This document shows, piece after piece, positions 3,093-12,361 of a stretch of 64,000 bases of DNA (the first letter of the stretch is position 1; each line of letters opens with the position of its first letter). The stretch spans positions 1 through 64,000 of the IMG/VR virus record IMGVR_UViG_3300020171_000019. One strand, 5' to 3'. A program made the translations under genes and the position numbers. The stretch is from a virus. A model generated the notes under the pieces. That model was not told the DNA's origin. It searched no databases and saw nothing but the letters and a program-made list of their open reading frames with translations.

Positions 3093-3121
3093 TTGACAAA
3101 CACCCTATACGAGTGTATATT
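3093..3121 (+). promoter_or_regulatory. Sigma70-type promoter, probably giving a leaderless tnpB mRNA
   Basis: TTGACA-N17-TATATT with ATG 3128 six nt after the -10 and no SD. Confidence 0.75.
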
Positions 3122-3127
3122 GTTTGT

Positions 3128-4351
3128 ATGGAGATTACTCGCACCACAAGACTTAGGGTTGATCTGACGTTCGACGTTGCTGAACGAACGGTTTTGGCAT
3201 GGACTGAGGCTTGTAACTACATCAGCCAAGTCGCCTTTGACCATGATCGAATGGCTAATTCGATCCGCCTGCACCGGTTGGTTTATTACGATGTCCGTGA
3301 GCAATTCGGGCTGTCGTCCCAGATTACAGCCAATGCTATCCGCTGGGTTGCAAGCAAATACCTGGCCCTTTACAAGTCCAAGAAATGCCCGAAGACGCCC
3401 ATTCGATTTCGGATGAATGCGGTCGTTTTGCAAGGCGGTGTTCGTGGCCGAGATTTCTCCTTTCTGGGTCGTGGGTTAAGCATCAGCACTATGGACGGAC
3501 GTATCAAGGGCATTGGATTTCGCGGAGAACCCAGGCTTACCGAGTATCTGACGGACTGGCAACTCGGTGATGCTCGTCTTTTCGTGAGAAAACATAAGGT
3601 CTACCTGGCTGTCTCGTTCACGAAGAATGTCCAGACAGTTCACCTTCCCAACGATGCTGTTGTTGGGGTTGACCGAGGAATCAACTGCCTTGCCGTAGTC
3701 ACCGACGGCCAGAAACAACAGTTCTTCGGTGGCGGATACACCAAGCATGTGCATCGTCGTTACGCCCTCATTCGCGCCAATCTCCAACGGAAAAAGACAG
3801 AGCATCCGACTCGCAGTATCCGTCGAGTGATCAAACTGCTGTCCGGACGAGAAGCACGATTCACCCGCAACACTAATCACGTCGTAAGCAAGCAGATCAT
3901 TACGTTCGCTGCACAAACCGGGAACCCCACGATTGCACTGGAAGACCTCAATGGCATCCGCAACGGGCGTCGATTCCGGAAAGCACAACGCACCGACCTT
4001 AACCGATGGAGCTTTGCTCAACTGGAGTTCTTCATCCGGTATAAGGCCGAAGCCCTCGGGTTCGAGGTTGTTGGCGTTGACCCGAAGAACACCAGTAAGG
4101 GATGCTCTCGGTGCGGCTATGTTGATGATCGGAATCGCCGCTTGTTGAGTTTCTGCTGCCATGCTTGTGGTCTCCAATTGCACTCTGATCTTAACGCCTC
4201 TCGTAATATCCGACTGAGAGGTATCCTGGCTCGGCAAGTCCTGGGTCAGGTTGGGCCGCCGTCAATCGGCCCCGAAGCACGACTCGATGACTCCGGCTCG
4301 AAACCGGACGAGGGGACGGGCAAGCTGCCTGCTTTAGCTGGCAGTAATTGA
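3128..4351 (+). CDS. tnpB: RNA-guided endonuclease TnpB
   Basis: RuvC motifs GVDRG, ALEDL and SDLNASRNI intact; zinc ribbon CSRCG...CHACG. Confidence 0.92.
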   Translation: MEITRTTRLRVDLTFDVAERTVLAWTEACNYISQVAFDHDRMANSIRLHRLVYYDVREQFGLSSQITANAIRWVASKYLALYKSKKCPKTPIRFRMNAVVLQGGVRGRDFSFLGRGLSISTMDGRIKGIGFRGEPRLTEYLTDWQLGDARLFVRKHKVYLAVSFTKNVQTVHLPNDAVVGVDRGINCLAVVTDGQKQQFFGGGYTKHVHRRYALIRANLQRKKTEHPTRSIRRVIKLLSGREARFTRNTNHVVSKQIITFAAQTGNPTIALEDLNGIRNGRRFRKAQRTDLNRWSFAQLEFFIRYKAEALGFEVVGVDPKNTSKGCSRCGYVDDRNRRLLSFCCHACGLQLHSDLNASRNIRLRGILARQVLGQVGPPSIGPEARLDDSGSKPDEGTGKLPALAGSN

Positions 4352-7173: not shown

Positions 7174-8503
7174 TGGCATCAGATGTTTCAGTAAGACCAG
7201 TAGAGGCATACGAGACGGCAAGAGAAATCATCGTATTAGGGAGACCCAAACCCAACGATGACTCACATAATTGCGACGTGCTTGGTTGTGGTTCAACTGG
7301 CCCGCACGTTCTCTATAGGTTTTTGAAACCAGAACCAGAAGAATGCCTATGTGGTGAGGATGAACGATCATGAGTAAGCGACGCAAGGCAGGAGATTGGG
7401 TGTTTGTATGTAAGGGTGCCGGGTTTGGTTTATCCCGTGGTGAATGTGCCATAATCAGACCAGAACCAGAAGGCCGAGACAACGACTTGTGTGTACTGCA
7501 GTGTGGTGATGATGACTGCCAGGAGTGGAGCACACTGTGGACAGAGAATGACCCCTGTTCGTTATGTCACGTGTCGGAGTGCGACATGCTCGACTCTGAA
7601 GCAGATGCCGTCCGAGAATAAGGAGGCGAAAGTGGTGCTCCCGGACAACAGGCAGGCAGTCGCCTTGTATTCTCATGTCTCCAGTTTATTCGCAGGCGAC
7701 CACTACGAAATGATCGAAGATGAGCCTGAGTATGAGGCCATTGCAGAAGAGATGCGGGACATCATCAGGGCTCGCAATGACAGAGCCGCAGGTGCAACGA
7801 TTCTCTGGTGGGACAGTTGGGACAAGAAATTGACGGCTACGAGATTTGCACGAACAGTCAGGGAACGATGGACGGCACACCAGAAGGAGGTCGCGGGTGG
7901 ATCGCGAAAAAGCCAGGAAATTGATGTCATGCTCTGAGGATTACGTGAGAACGGCACGACTGTTTGTGTCCTCGGTGATAGAGAAATACGAACCAGCACA
8001 AACAAATCACTTCGTGGCGCTATTGGGTCACTTGAACACGGCGATGGAACAATGTCGGTTGTTCAAGGATAAGTTTGGTAGCACAGGGCCATATAAAGAG
8101 GAGAACATCAATGTCGGCTGAGATCAAGAACTGCGGATGCGAGAATAAAGGGCAAGACGTCCTGCACGGTCACGGAAAACGGGTGTTCAACGGCGGCTCA
8201 ACGAACTGGACGTGCACGGCCTGTGGGGCCAAGCAACCACTGAGCCAAGGAGAACGGAACATTAAGGAGCAAACCAAGGGAAAGAAAAATGGCTGACCTA
8301 ATTAAGGAGGCATATTTATGCAGGTGCATGTGGTCTGTTTCGGTCTTGGTTTCTATTGCGGGGTGGTTGCTCTTGCGGTTGTGCTGATAGCGGCCAGGAG
8401 TAAGACTGCAACAGGAGAGACGTGGCGGGGATACATGGCGCGGCACTTCAGGCAGTTACGTCGGTGGACTGATGGGCAAGAAGGAGAACGCAATGCCAAT
8501 TGA
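7173..8503 (+). other. Run of short, tightly packed hypothetical genes, several Cys-rich
   Basis: Overlapping or abutting + strand ORFs (7173..7373, 7370..7621, to 7937, to 8121, to 8296, to 8503); individual starts uncertain. Confidence 0.5.
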
Positions 8504-9638
8504 ACGCACAGAACTACTGAGGGCTCTTGAGTCTGTTGTATCTGCGGCACCGGGCAATCCGTCACTGCCGATCTTGTCAACTGTAGCCCTAATAGCGCAT
8601 GATGGTAGATTGATAGCGCGATGCACTGACCTGGACATATCAATCGCAACTACGGCAAAAATGATGATGCAGGCTACAGGGGATTTGACCCTGGTAAATG
8701 ACGAGTGGTCAATATGCCTTCCTGCAGCCAAGCTCCTGGAGTTGGTGAAGGTATTTGACGATGGAGAAATCCGCGTGGAGGCAGAGGTTGACCGTGTAAC
8801 TCTTCATACCGCCAATGGCAAGTATAAACTGGCCGGAATGGATGCAGAAGACTTCCCGGCAGACTCCAAGATGGACAGTAACCAGCAAATCGAATTCAGT
8901 CCGGAGGAGGCGGAGGTCTTCGGAGAAGCACTGAACAAGGTGGTGTTTGCGGCGAGCACAGACACTGCAACAAGGACAATACTCACCGGTGTGCATATGA
9001 AGGCAAGCGGTGGTAGCTTGATGCTCAGGGCCACGACTGGATACATGGCCGCAATGTGCAGAATCCCGGCAGCCGGAGAGATGGATATTGTGGTGCCGGC
9101 CAAGGCCGGAATCCAGAAGATCATCCGGATGTGCAAGTCTGGCGAGCCGGTAGTTGTGCGGTGGAAGGATGCGTTTCTTGAGTGCGAGTCTGGGCCGACA
9201 AGACTGGATTGTCGGTTACTTGAGGGGATATACCCCGACGTTGAGCGGATCATCCCGGAGCACACAACAAAAGTGACGTGCAATGTGGCAGAGTTACGGG
9301 GTGTTGTTCTGCGTAATCTGTCAATGGCCGACGAGAACTCAGCACTGAGATGCGAGATTGCAGGGAGTGAAGTCACGATGTCGGCGCAGTCAGGCGCGAA
9401 GGCGACTCAGGCGACTGAGACCGTCGCGGTAAAGACAGAAGGCAAGGAAACCGTAGTAAGCCTGAGCTGCAAGTATCTCTTAGATGTGCTGAAGCGAATC
9501 GACTCCGAGGAGGTCGTTTGGATGATCAAGGGGCCTATGGACGCAATGCTCTTGAAGCCTGCAGATAACGAGGATCAACGTTTCGTGATTATGCCGATGC
9601 GCGGGCCGAAATCAGACCACGAGGAGGCTGATGGATAA
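8493..9638 (+). CDS. dnaN: DNA polymerase III beta sliding clamp
   Basis: IERTELLRAL, LPILS, TDLDISI, CLPAAKL, VVFAAST, RTILTGV, RLLEGIYPDVERIIP, KYLLDVL, FVIMPMR. Confidence 0.92.
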   Translation: MPIERTELLRALESVVSAAPGNPSLPILSTVALIAHDGRLIARCTDLDISIATTAKMMMQATGDLTLVNDEWSICLPAAKLLELVKVFDDGEIRVEAEVDRVTLHTANGKYKLAGMDAEDFPADSKMDSNQQIEFSPEEAEVFGEALNKVVFAASTDTATRTILTGVHMKASGGSLMLRATTGYMAAMCRIPAAGEMDIVVPAKAGIQKIIRMCKSGEPVVVRWKDAFLECESGPTRLDCRLLEGIYPDVERIIPEHTTKVTCNVAELRGVVLRNLSMADENSALRCEIAGSEVTMSAQSGAKATQATETVAVKTEGKETVVSLSCKYLLDVLKRIDSEEVVWMIKGPMDAMLLKPADNEDQRFVIMPMRGPKSDHEEADG

Positions 9639-9933
9639 GATATGCGGAAACTGCAGGCACTTCTCCCATTCTCGGGGGCCAACAGGACGACCAAGACCTA
9701 AAGAGCCAGGTTATTGTGGTTGGAGGTGCAAAGCGCTTGACGAGTGGCCTGCAGTATGGCCCACGGCATATGAGGAAGATCGAGGGTTTCGGGATTGCAC
9801 TCCGCTACCACCACGGCAAAAGACGCGGATTTACAAGGAGACTGGAGGGTCATATCGTCCATGTCAGTGCTGGGAAGCACAAGAGCAAGCGGCCAAGGCA
9901 GAGAAAACGGAGCAGGTAGCGTTCAATGTTTGA
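9631..9933 (+). CDS. Cys-rich hypothetical protein
   Basis: KICGNCRHF...GYC...CQCW; SD GAGGAGG. Confidence 0.55.
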   Translation: MDKICGNCRHFSHSRGPTGRPRPKEPGYCGWRCKALDEWPAVWPTAYEEDRGFRDCTPLPPRQKTRIYKETGGSYRPCQCWEAQEQAAKAEKTEQVAFNV

Positions 9934-9941
9934 TACACAAT

Positions 9942-10120
9942 GCCCGGTGTGCCCGTAATGACCAATGGTGGGGATCCTTGTGGCAGGCGAATAGGTAAGC
10001 CTAAATAGGCCCAACCCCTAGCCCGCGCCACAGGTTGGGCCAGATTGCCGAGACCGGTTCGTGGCCGGCTTTGACGACAGCGGTATCTGATGATGCGGGT
10101 TCGAGTCCCGTCACCGGGCA
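9942..10120 (+). ncRNA. ~180-nt tRNA-like structured RNA with expanded, pseudoknotted central domains
   Basis: 8-bp closing stem GCCCGGTG/CACCGGGC; canonical T-arm GCGGG-TTCGAGT-CCCGT; fills a 210-bp gap between the + strand genes ending at 9933 and starting at 10144. Confidence 0.7.
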
Positions 10121-10582
10121 ACAAAACGAAGAGAGGAACGAATATGGAAGACGAAGACATTTGCGGGTTTTGCGGATTGCCTGGAGCAGACAAATACCCG
10201 CACCCTGTTCGCTGGCCAGACGAGGACAGTGCTGGGACTAAGCTCGTGCATGCTGAATGCGAGGCAGAGGAATGCGCAAGGGCAAGTGCACTATGTCAAG
10301 GCAAGGCGCGAGAAGATTTCCTACGACATTTGTAAGGAGCAGAAATGACAATAGAAGAATTGAAAAACACAACACTTCCCTTTGATGTTGTTTGCACCAT
10401 CGGTTGTTCTTCGCGTGGCACGGTAATAGGTTTCTCGGAACAAGATCCACTTGATGTTGGTGGTGGAATGTTTCCAGATATGCCTACTGTTTATTTCAAG
10501 GGCGGCGGCTGGCTGTTGGTAAGTCATTTGCTGAGGCATTACGAATTGGCAACCCCCACAACTCCCGTCACCGGGCAACAAA
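10106..10582 (+). repeat. 20-bp perfect direct repeat of the tRNA-like RNA 3' end (10106-10125 and 10563-10582)
   Basis: TCCCGTCACCGGGCAACAAA occurs twice, flanking two small ORFs. Confidence 0.9.
10144..10335 (+). CDS. Small zinc-binding hypothetical protein
   Basis: SD GAGG; CGFC...HAEC. Confidence 0.55.
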   Translation: MEDEDICGFCGLPGADKYPHPVRWPDEDSAGTKLVHAECEAEECARASALCQGKAREDFLRHL

Positions 10583-10593
10583 TAACAATGTGA
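10345..10593 (+). CDS. Hypothetical protein
   Basis: SD AAGGAG; ends across the second 20-bp repeat. Confidence 0.55.
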   Translation: MTIEELKNTTLPFDVVCTIGCSSRGTVIGFSEQDPLDVGGGMFPDMPTVYFKGGGWLLVSHLLRHYELATPTTPVTGQQITM

Positions 10594-10600
10594 GGGCAAA

Positions 10601-10822
10601 ATGCCGACCAAGGATAAGCACGTGAAATTAGACTCAGGCCAAAAACATCTTCTTCGATTAATAAGAAGGGATTGCCACACCGATGGGTGGACAACAGTTA
10701 GTGAGAAGGTTCTGCCATTGGTAGAGATGCTGCCGAGCCAACTTGTTAGGATTGGACCCCTCGGAGCACAGTTGACACCCGAGGGGAGTAGCGTCGTGAG
10801 CGCGATGGACTGGCTGGAATGA
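10601..10822 (+). CDS. Hypothetical protein
   Basis: SD GAGG; 73 aa. Confidence 0.5.
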   Translation: MPTKDKHVKLDSGQKHLLRLIRRDCHTDGWTTVSEKVLPLVEMLPSQLVRIGPLGAQLTPEGSSVVSAMDWLE

Positions 10823-11171
10823 ACATTGTAAGGTGATGTCCGACGGAGAGCGAAGGAGCATCGACATGACTTTTGACGAATGGTGGTCTGGGTACTGGAA
10901 AGATTCAGAATCAGTAACGCCGATTCTACAAGCAGCCTTCCGGGAGGTAGCTTACCGGGGGTGGAAGGCCAGAGAGTCTATTCTTCCTCCTCCTGTCGAA
11001 TGGCGTGGAGAGGACATTGATGAAGCTGCTGAGTATTTATGTAGATGCGGCTGAAACCTAGTGGAAAAAGCTGGTAGCAGGCGCTTCGGAGCTGTTGTGA
11101 TCCTGGTCGCGGATCTGTCCTCGCATGGTTTACTCAGTTGCCAGCCGACGCCACATACATATGGACATCAC

Positions 11172-11663
11172 ATGAATATCTGGCTCATAGCTGATACACA
11201 TTGGGGTCACGAACGGTTACAGGTCCTCGCAGAGCGCCCCGCCGATTTTGGTGAGCAGATCATCAAAAACTGGAGAGCGACAGTCGGAATGGACGATCTC
11301 GTTATCCACTTGGGAGACGTGATATGGAAACGCGACTCCGAGTTGAAGGGTGTGCTCGAATCGTTGCCGGGGTGGAAGGTTCTGGTTCGAGGGAACCACG
11401 ATCATCAGCGGACACGGTGGTATATGACGCGCGGTTTCTCATTCGTCTGCGAGATGTTCGTCCGGAAAGGCGTGTTGTTTACACACGTGCCGTTCTTCCC
11501 GGTGCTTCGGGACAGGTTTACCGCCAACGTACACGGACACCTGCATGGAGGTGCGGAGATACGTCATACCGATGAGATGGACGGAGTATATGATCCGTCA
11601 TGGCACAAGCTCGTAGCACTTGAACACCACTACTCACCCATCAGACTGGAGGATGTCACATGA
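11172..11663 (+). CDS. Calcineurin-like metallophosphoesterase
   Basis: DTHWGH, HLGD, GNHD, FTH.P and HGHLH motifs. Confidence 0.9.
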   Translation: MNIWLIADTHWGHERLQVLAERPADFGEQIIKNWRATVGMDDLVIHLGDVIWKRDSELKGVLESLPGWKVLVRGNHDHQRTRWYMTRGFSFVCEMFVRKGVLFTHVPFFPVLRDRFTANVHGHLHGGAEIRHTDEMDGVYDPSWHKLVALEHHYSPIRLEDVT

Positions 11664-12361
11664 AGGACATATTGTCGGTGGTTGTAGGCTCCAGACTACA
11701 CGGACTACACCAGGATACATCAGATACGGATATCCGAGGAATCTTCCAGGAAGACATAGAGGAACTGATTTCCCCATTCAGGACTCCCAAGACGACACAC
11801 TGGACGGAGGGAGATGAAGACAACACGTCATACGAGCTTCGTCACTTCTGTAAAATGGCAGTCCAAGGAAATCCGACAATACTTGAGATTCTGTGGTCGA
11901 ATCAGGTTGTCCACACGACACCTGCTGGCACTTATCTGCAGATGTGGCGTCATGATTTTCTCGACAGCCACAATATCTATGAGGCACATAAGGGGTATGC
12001 GCACAACCAGTACAAGAAGATGAACCTGTTTGAGCCAGACGCCAGAACTCCCAAGTTCGCAGTGGCGTATCTTCGGTCCCTAAGACAAGGGATCGACTTG
12101 TTGTTAACGGGGGACTTCTCACCGCAGGTAGCAGAAGGCGACAAGGAGTTCTTGATGGAGGTCAAATACTCTTGGAATCCCGGGTTGATCCCGGTTCTAT
12201 CCCGCAAGTTCGCGGAGCTTCAAGTTGAGTTCGCCGATGTGTACGCTCAGAACCACGACCGACTCAAGCCAGACATCGGAATAATAGAAGAGTTTCTTCT
12301 CGGTGAGTACACGCAGCTTTTTCCAGTCGTCCGTCCCGCGTGGACAACAGATAGAAGTTGA
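11660..12361 (+). CDS. Pol-beta-superfamily nucleotidyltransferase (Nuc-transf / RlaP-like)
   Basis: VVGSRLHGLHQDTSDTDIRGIF, YELRHFC...GNPTILEILW, GYAHNQ. Confidence 0.8.
   Translation: MKDILSVVVGSRLHGLHQDTSDTDIRGIFQEDIEELISPFRTPKTTHWTEGDEDNTSYELRHFCKMAVQGNPTILEILWSNQVVHTTPAGTYLQMWRHDFLDSHNIYEAHKGYAHNQYKKMNLFEPDARTPKFAVAYLRSLRQGIDLLLTGDFSPQVAEGDKEFLMEVKYSWNPGLIPVLSRKFAELQVEFADVYAQNHDRLKPDIGIIEEFLLGEYTQLFPVVRPAWTTDRS

Follow-up and report, generated by a model that had tools for sequence, protein, structure and literature searches.

A candidate stand-alone gene for a tRNA-shaped RNA without an anticodon arm in a groundwater phage

To our knowledge, look-alikes of transfer RNA (tRNA) that lack an anticodon have been known from the bacteriophages T4 and T5 for decades without a function being found, and they escape standard annotation. 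Species 1 RNA of T4 (rnaC, 139 nt; NC_000866, 70908-71046) is a stable phage RNA of unknown function. RNA1 of T5 (rna1, 144 nt; NC_005859, 30501-30644) is annotated as a “tRNA-like stable RNA with unknown functions” and has 487 homologues in T5-like phages, most of which are unannotated or overlaid by “hypothetical protein” calls. Here we describe an RNA with the same architecture, that is, a phage-encoded molecule with a T arm on a terminal helix and a structured insert at the anticodon site, at positions 9942-10120 of the IMG/VR virus record IMGVR_UViG_3300020171_000019. The stretch analysed, hereafter the window, is the first 64 kb of this 76,137-bp record, the completeness of which is estimated at about 81%. 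The record comes from a groundwater metagenome and represents an uncultured virus, a tailed phage of a Gram-negative host. RNAs of this kind are known and functionally unsolved; the lineage found here is uncatalogued in the phage, IMG/VR and GTDB sequences that we searched.

The reading that we favour, and consider moderately probable, is that the phage has a stand-alone gene for a stable, tRNA-shaped RNA that does not decode and is composed of the top half of a tRNA plus cargo. The best reading of the conserved part is a class II leucine-like top half, with an acceptor of 8 bp, U8-G9, a D-like arm and a T arm. Judged from the alignments, a 122-nt domain that varies between relatives stands where the anticodon and variable arms belong. 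The parts are as follows.

9942..10120, + strand: the entire tRNA-shaped RNA gene of about 179 nt, counting the discriminator-like A10120; borders set by homology, and chance excluded by simulation.
9942..9949, + strand: acceptor-like helix, 5´ strand; eight perfect Watson-Crick pairs with 10112-10119.
9950..9972, + strand: U8-G9-like dinucleotide and D-like arm; stem CCC(G)/(U)GGG with a loop of 13-15 nt.
9973..10094, + strand: central “cargo” domain of 122 nt where the anticodon arm and variable region would be.
10095..10111, + strand: canonical T arm (GCGGG, UUCGAGU, CCCGU); identical in X5, a relative described below.
10112..10119, + strand: acceptor-like helix, 3´ strand; followed by A10120, with no CCA encoded.

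The core observation of a tRNA-like element at 9942-10120, made in the original prediction, holds. The terminal helix indeed consists of eight perfect Watson-Crick pairs and contains no G.U pair at all; its third pair is C9944:G10117, which bears out the statement that the G3:U70 identity of alanine tRNA is absent. The helix directly abuts the T arm in the 8/5 geometry that had been claimed (9942-49/10112-19 and 10095-99/10107-11), as far as sequence can confirm a stack. One G.U and four G-C pairs, G53:C61 included, make up the T stem, and the loop UUCGAGU carries U54, U55, C56, R57 and A58. Downstream of the helix come A and then AC, and the gene is devoid of CCA, also as claimed. The D-like arm (stem strands 9952-55/9969-72) has a loop that ends in AAUGG(U), like G18G19. 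Within the window, the pattern GGTTCRANTCC occurs at a single site, which is the T arm of the RNA. Chance was estimated from 400 first-order Markov simulations of the 64-kb window. A T arm alone arose 0.19 times per window and a T arm with a perfect closure of at least 6 nt 0.0075 times per window, while a T arm with a perfect acceptor closure of at least 7 nt arose in 0/400 simulated windows; the real element has 8. Since such a closure was absent from all simulations, the combination of acceptor and T arm is beyond chance.

The borders of the gene are seen in its relatives, which are Logan contigs of other sequencing runs compared over positions 9600-10900 at a likeness of at least 80%. The RNA module is present in contigs from three other metagenome studies, in which the flanks differ. 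In a groundwater contig of 345 nt (X5 record 7), positions 9942-10004 are found with 7 differences and 10087-10124 with none; the 82 nt in between (10005-10086) are swapped for 65 other letters, and neither flank is related. An aquatic contig (X4 record 5) matched over 10031-10119 with a 9-nt deletion (10069-10077), and is unrelated both upstream of about 10031-10040 and after 10119. The match of X2 record 1 extends over 10014-10126 and is followed by 14 other letters, including a ribosome-binding site, and by the second of the small open reading frames (ORFs) that lie downstream of the RNA, the first being missing. X5 record 9 matched from 10114 through the first small ORF, after which 496 nt are skipped. 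The homology borders, at 9942 on the 5´ side and at 10119-10126 on the 3´ side, with differing flanks, are the predicted ends of the RNA. Their recurrence in several contexts and studies argues for a discrete gene of which the ends are kept and the centre is exchanged.

The replacement of 82 nt by 65 nt breaks every reading frame and makes a coding function unlikely. A search of 5.8 billion proteins, at near and at shorter lengths, gave no homologue of an ORF of 109 amino acids that runs antisense across the RNA. By these comparisons the RNA is non-coding, and the proposal of a non-coding, tRNA-mimicking RNA gene overlooked by standard detectors is supported. Because the RNA occurs alone in a phage without tRNA genes, a tRNA cluster cannot have given rise to it as a by-product. 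A lone RNA with perfect ends, an exchanged centre and borders that are recombination joints argues for a design of “chassis plus cargo”.

The element does not belong to the following classes of tRNA-like molecules. The detectors were ARAGORN, in its tRNA and transfer-messenger RNA (tmRNA) modes and with the intron option at default stringency, and Rfam 15. ARAGORN called no tRNA or tmRNA gene, at the RNA or elsewhere, in the window and in the whole 76-kb record, also with introns allowed. Rfam matches were listed at E<=10, with only the best of any overlapping matches within the tRNA clan retained, and over the RNA nothing rose above noise. The best was to selenocysteine tRNA (tRNA-Sec, RF01852) at 15.3 bits against a cut-off of 47 (E 2.8), in an alignment that covers 10039-10119 only and uses a different, mismatched acceptor; no match to RF00005 was listed at this threshold. 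The two programs, which the original prediction had named as checks, thus gave no full-length match. Assignment to tRNA-Sec was rejected: the RNA shares its coaxial acceptor/T stack of 8 + 5 = 13 bp and nothing else, and lacks the 6-bp D stem, the UCA anticodon and the ordered long variable arm. A tmRNA, or a form of it reduced to the tRNA-like domain, was rejected on the C:G at the third pair and the lack of an ARAGORN or Rfam tmRNA match. A tRNA containing a group I intron was likewise discarded, the centre being only 122 nt compared with a core of about 200 nt or more, and no intron or ribozyme of Rfam matched at E<=10.

Bacterial and phage Y RNAs of the YrlA and Yrn1 types are non-coding tRNA mimics, some of which are substrates of RNase P and of the CCA-adding enzyme (Chen et al. 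2014; PMC4201824). With them the RNA shares non-coding tRNA mimicry and T- and D-like arms, and in phages they are often found near RNA-repair genes. YrlA is circularly permuted relative to tRNA, in the order 5´ stem, T arm, acceptor-like loop, D arm and 3´ stem, and lies at most 4 kb from a Ro60 gene (PMC4201824). Its ends are opposite the acceptor, whereas the present RNA follows tRNA order, with D before T and with ends that form the acceptor. It is also unaccompanied by a TROVE gene: PF05731 (TROVE/Ro60) gave no match in the 76-kb record and did match in control genomes. The sequence GGCGAAUAG at 9986-9994 comes close to the YrlA motif GNCGAAN0-1G (PMC4201824), with two spacer bases and about 6 bases of information. 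A YrlA-type Y RNA was rejected on arm order, ends and the missing Ro60 gene, and with it falls the Y-RNA-like scaffold that had been suggested.

Closer in design are the two phage RNAs named at the outset. T4 species 1 RNA is encoded on the same strand as its neighbours, places its T arm (CCGGG/UUCGAAU/CCCGG) directly on a terminal helix made of both ends, and has a long structured insert, consisting of long central hairpins, instead of an anticodon arm; all of this, apart from the sequence and the long hairpins, is shared by the RNA described here. It differs in sitting within a tRNA gene cluster, whereas the present phage has no tRNA gene, in its acceptor of 7 pairs with two U.U mismatches compared with 8 perfect pairs, and in a thermodynamically strong fold, with a z-score of -4.57 versus -1.39. 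No sequence similarity to it was found beyond the T loop, and nothing could be learnt from aligning the RNA by MAFFT with those of T4, T5 and the Synechococcus phage. T5 RNA1 has the same leucine-tRNA-like chassis (U8-G9, a 3-bp D stem, T arm and acceptor) and an insert that replaces the anticodon loop. Unlike the present RNA, it keeps a canonical, covarying anticodon stem of 5-6 bp, a long variable arm and an insert of 41 nt.

A covariance model of T5 RNA1 was built from 11 diverse family members. In their alignment, the helices with compensatory changes are the anticodon-stem-like one, the distal one and the acceptor; in the RNAalifold consensus, 9 of the 33 pairs have such changes. The model scores the tRNA-Leu of LUZ100 at 39.8 bits and that of T4 at 34.5 bits, and the 41-nt insert falls in the anticodon loop, so T5 RNA1 is visibly a tRNA-Leu with cargo. 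On the window, the same model matched the T arm only (5.9 bits, E 1.4). The RNA thus shares the design of T5 RNA1 and is not a member of its family. A 9-mer common to both, CGAAUAGGU, was dismissed as it is not conserved inside the T5 family. The original prediction had called the element a new RNA; this stands for the lineage, which is not catalogued in the sequences searched, and not for the kind, of which T4 species 1 RNA and T5 RNA1 are earlier examples.

The chassis looks leucine-tRNA-like in its A discriminator, U8-G9, 3-bp D stem and AAUGGU D loop, the D-like arm recalling class II tRNA-Leu with its 3-bp D stem and AAUUGGU loop. The T arm agrees with those of tRNA-Leu from phages and from bacteria. 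When the RNA alone was compared with phage records by blastn, matches were confined to T arms and 3´ ends of tRNAs; the best database matches, 3´ ends of phage tRNA-Leu, are 87-90% identical to its T arm and acceptor 3´ strand. A degenerate 3´-end pattern occurs at three loci among 185,579 GTDB species genomes, where ARAGORN calls five tRNA-Leu genes and one tRNA-Ile. Compared with class II tRNA-Leu, the RNA has an acceptor of 8 rather than 7 pairs and a length of 179 rather than about 87 nt, its D loop is too large and has no UAGA tail, it has no anticodon stem-loop or recognisable variable arm, and it is missed by ARAGORN and Rfam. The leucyl-tRNA synthetase of Escherichia coli relies on A73 and the tertiary core, not on the anticodon; by analogy, leucylation of an RNA with such a chassis is conceivable.

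Another unannotated RNA of about 108 nt with tRNA-like features lies between tail genes of the Synechococcus phage Yong-M2-251 (OM868082.1; 1446-1553 of the extracted locus). It is identical in Ssp-JY39 and is not detected by ARAGORN. Its acceptor has 7 bp, its D arm is a canonical GCUC/GAGC, its T arm is the same as in the RNA described here, and a GCAA-capped hairpin and a second hairpin occupy the site of the anticodon arm. The 54-nt blastn match between the two RNAs (E 0.05) brings together helix strands that are not equivalent; homology was therefore rejected and the RNAs are treated as separate. Bacterial tRNA-Leu normally has a long variable arm. In an Alphaproteobacteria metagenome-assembled genome (CBDCGJ010000021.1; 635-954 of the extracted locus), four tandem tRNA-Leu calls of 77-78 nt (CAG, UAA, CAA, GAG) have D arms of the leucine type but a variable loop of only 5 nt.

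The centre of the RNA has the potential to form the following helices.

9977..10034, + strand: helix S1 with a 42-nt interior; 9977-9984/10027-10034, 8 bp including one G.U.
10008..10041, + strand: helix S2, a perfect 9-bp GGCCCAACC/GGUUGGGCC; strands 10008-16/10033-41.
10050..10072, + strand: hairpin with a CCGG/CCGG core and a 7-nt loop, UUCGUGG; pairing probability of the core 0.8.

It had been proposed that two crossing helices form a pseudoknot in place of the anticodon arm. Both exist as complementarity: UGUGGC/GCCACA extends to the 8 bp of S1, and S2 is a perfect 9-bp helix with a chance P of about 0.025 in composition-matched 122-mers. It is their joint formation that does not stand. 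S2 and the 3´ strand of S1 have 2 nt in common and the linker between the helices is zero nucleotides, which makes a classical H-type pseudoknot sterically impossible; S1 and S2 are feasible together only via unusual stacking, with loops of 10 nt and 23 nt spanning the helices. When the acceptor and T arm are enforced, nested ensembles give S1 a probability of 0.67-0.87 and S2 one of 0.05. A third fold within 2.3 kcal/mol closes the centre by a bulged helix (9973-81/10077-87), keeps S2 and a hairpin at 10054-68, and leaves a variable loop of 7 nt. In the relatives, this region is replaced in X5 and the 5´ strand of S2 is missing from X4 at the same spacing. With no linker, nested probabilities of 0.87 versus 0.05 and a region that is replaced or missing in relatives, the pseudoknot at 9979-10041 is unproven; nested folding favours S1.

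The large extended arm placed at 10041-10089 reduces to at most a hairpin, at 10038-10066 or 10050-10072. The loop of the latter, UUCGUGG, is anticodon-loop-like (U33, G37), and the hairpin is kept in X2 and X4 and substituted in X5. A 5-bp anticodon stem after position 26 is not present in the RNA. A hammerhead or C/D-box reading of CUGAUGAU was rejected, as no GAAA is correctly placed after it and Rfam gave no match. Complementarity of the RNA to possible antisense targets in the phage's own genome does not exceed 12 nt, as expected by chance.

A perfect direct repeat takes in the 3´ end of the gene.

10106..10125, + strand: 20-nt perfect direct repeat, copy 1; starts at the last base of the T loop and extends 6 nt beyond the RNA.
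10563..10582, + strand: 20-nt perfect direct repeat, copy 2; 457 nt downstream of copy 1.

The copies bracket two small ORFs (10145-10335 and 10345-10593). No paralogy was found between the two flanking small ORFs. Just past 10119-10126, gene content is different in every relative: one or both of the bracketed ORFs are missing, or other genes take their place. A repeat at the 3´ end, together with gene content that changes there in every relative, marks this end as a recombination joint as well. The pattern resembles cassette exchange at a tRNA-like 3´ end, and there is no integrase in the record. A reading of the site as attP was rejected for want of an integrase.

The RNA occupies the gap between the stop of the ORF at 9631-9933 and the ATG at 10145. 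It is tightly packed in a same-strand operon, in which all surrounding genes are on the + strand.

Upstream of the clamp gene, + strand: DUF3310 nucleotide-kinase-like gene (Pfam and PHROGs matches).
8472-9638, + strand: DNA polymerase III beta clamp.
9631-9933, + strand: ORF of 100 amino acids, directly upstream of the RNA gap.
10145-10335 and 10345-10593, + strand: the first two small ORFs downstream of the RNA.
Between the RNA gap and the metallophosphoesterase gene, + strand: four small ORFs in all.
11061-11663, + strand: metallophosphoesterase of the RNA-end-repair type (Pfam and PHROGs).
11660-12361, + strand: RlaP-family nucleotidyltransferase of the RNA-end-repair type (Pfam and PHROGs).
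Downstream of the RlaP gene: HNH endonuclease, then methylase, terminase and portal genes.

No promoter-like or terminator-like site was found at the RNA gene. The metallophosphoesterase and RlaP genes, about 1 kb downstream, are context only, and a functional link to the RNA is hypothetical. RlaP enzymes append 1-2 nt to damaged RNA 3´ ends (PMC12776372; PMC7824862). In the 76-kb record, which is about 81% complete, RtcB, Ro60/TROVE and tyrosine integrase had no match. The search for the Rnl1 family carries no information, as it matched no control genome either. No polynucleotide-kinase domain was seen in the phage proteins scanned. RlaP and a metallophosphoesterase without RtcB, an Rnl2-type ligase, a CCA-adding enzyme or a tRNA gene would amount to an incomplete RNA-repair set, unless partners are encoded in the missing 19% of the genome or by the host. 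The ORF at 9631-9933 has a counterpart in a related contig (X4 record 4, compared over 9612-9919), with differences mostly at multiples of three. Differences at third codon positions indicate a real protein gene under purifying selection. The same contig terminates in Illumina adapter sequence.

Several points weigh against the reading of the element as a stand-alone RNA gene with a functional centre. Of the D-arm-like element that had been described, the complementarity CCCG..TGGG exists, but the stem is weak, with a pairing probability of 0.17, and the relative X5 carries G9972A and G9973A, the first of which breaks a D-stem pair unless compensated. These two are the only substitutions of the relatives' RNA that were resolved, the positions of the other five of the seven differences in X5 record 7 not being given by the comparison. 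Folding gives a weak thermodynamic signal, the z-score being -1.39 for the RNA as a whole and -1.09 for its centre. Among the sequencing runs, none of RNA is listed as containing the locus. Neither a CCA-adding enzyme nor an Rnl2-type RNA ligase was matched in the 76-kb record, and an effector role of the centre is pure conjecture. The lineage is also rare, as it has no sequence relative in IMG/VR, in the 185,579 GTDB genomes or in 50,697 phage records. The 1.3-kb region gave no blastn match in the collection of 50,697 phage records, and the 22-mer at the 3´ end is absent from the GTDB species genomes. Five exact patterns of the RNA returned nothing or chance matches in IMG/VR; those to a 17-mer of the D loop were dismissed as chance, being five coding sequences that encode VMTNGG. 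A search of IMG/VR anchored on the adjacent proteins (the sliding clamp and the ORF of 100 amino acids) gave no match. In metagenomes of the Joint Genome Institute, the protein-anchored search yielded only clamps at 23-24% identity, none of them near a tRNA-like gene. The only true relative found for the clamp, at 53% identity, is encoded on a 90.7-kb Logan contig.

Some of these observations would equally suit a decayed tRNA gene, in which the anticodon region of a class II leucine-like tRNA was disrupted by insertions or rearrangements and the functionless remnant has intact ends owing to recency or hitch-hiking. The leucine-like chassis, the weak folding scores and a centre that is replaced, deleted or diverged among close relatives are in line with decay, and the 20-nt partial copy of the 3´ end, 457 nt downstream, implies that recombination scars exist here. 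We nevertheless consider decay unlikely, given that all 8 acceptor and all 5 T-stem pairs are still intact, that homology borders coincide exactly with the RNA ends in three independent contexts, and that the 76-kb record holds no intact parental tRNA. Moreover, the 3´ 38 nt are identical in a relative with a different centre and different flanks, which points to selection on the ends. Another possibility is a role in cis, the element being either an RNase P processing signal that cuts a polycistronic mRNA or an att-type recombination site, and the released RNA having no job. As a complete account we find this decidedly doubtful; it is compatible with the stand-alone RNA gene and does not exclude it. 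The perfect 20-nt repeat, which runs from the T loop to 6 nt past the gene and brackets two small ORFs, is like the attL/attR of elements that target tRNA genes, the genes change right after 10119-10126 in every relative, and a promoter or terminator of its own is missing. A cis role, however, leaves the 122-nt centre and the conserved 5´ 63 nt unneeded, since a T arm and acceptor would suffice; the 5´ border at 9942 is a junction too, so that the whole RNA moves as a unit, and the 76-kb record has no tyrosine integrase.

Far less probable is a working tRNA with an insert of about 78-80 nt (9973-10050) that is removed or tolerated, the hairpin at 10050-10072 serving as anticodon arm with the anticodon CGU. 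When about 9970-10050 is deleted in silico, ARAGORN does call a 98-nt “tRNA-Thr(CGU)” with an 8-bp acceptor; G1:C72 and C2:G71 fit the threonine identity of E. coli, and the hairpin is conserved in X2 and X4. It is, however, wholly replaced in X5, its stem contains an A x C mismatch, and the “variable region” of 23-25 nt forms no arm. Position 37 is G, whereas tRNAs reading ANN codons carry A37. We know of no bacterial or phage route for splicing an insert at position 26, and the record lacks RtcB and an Rnl2-type RNA ligase (the Rnl1 search being uninformative), as does the centre any Rfam match to a group I or other ribozyme. An RNA for ribosome rescue or Ro60 binding, whether a tmRNA cut down to its tRNA-like domain or a Y RNA like YrlA and Yrn1, is just as improbable. 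Its tRNA-like ends and structured centre, the resemblance of GGCGAAUAG to the YrlA motif and the nearby RlaP gene are what such an RNA would offer. Yet the third pair is C:G and not G3:U70, neither an ARAGORN tmRNA call nor an Rfam tmRNA-family match was obtained, no convincing tag reading frame is present, and the record holds no TROVE/Ro60 gene or RtcB. The arms follow tRNA order, whereas YrlA has T before D and ends opposite the acceptor, and in the motif, which is worth only some 6 bases of information, the spacer is one base too long.

If the favoured stand-alone RNA gene is accepted, a life history can be sketched. The lack of its own promoter and terminator and the same-strand packing suggest that the RNA would be co-transcribed with the neighbouring operon genes. 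Host RNase P would cut at 9941/9942, and 3´ trimming and the host CCA-adding enzyme would finish the end after A10120; with no tRNA gene, CCA-adding enzyme or Rnl2-type RNA ligase in the record, processing would depend wholly on the host. The tRNA-like elbow might then shield the RNA from exonucleases. The central domain could be the working part and might most plausibly bind or distract a protein that handles tRNA, e.g. a host nuclease directed at tRNA or some other factor that binds tRNA, or it might act with the phage's own phosphoesterase and RlaP, encoded about 1 kb downstream. The decoy function that had been suggested is thus a possibility. The 3´ end of the gene is at the same time a joint at which downstream gene cassettes are exchanged by recombination. 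One intriguing extension, to which we attach little credence, is a modular tool for anti-defence or host takeover: the leucine chassis would be processed, tailed with CCA and perhaps charged, the swappable cargo would bind or decoy host factors directed at tRNA, and the 3´ end would be an integrase-independent recombination site that shuffles cassettes (here the two ORFs between the 20-nt repeats) among phages. The RNA by itself does not say what such RNAs do, but it provides a concrete construct for bench work on processing, charging and partner binding.

Two other features of the window concern RNA elsewhere in the phage. A TnpB-like protein of 412 amino acids, encoded at 3113-4351 (+ strand), combines OrfB_IS605 with a Cas12f1-like TNB domain; a guide (omega) RNA is expected close to the 3´ end of a TnpB gene. 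The sole above-threshold Rfam match in the window is an RT-17 RNA at 33642-33732 (+ strand), with 44.7 bits.

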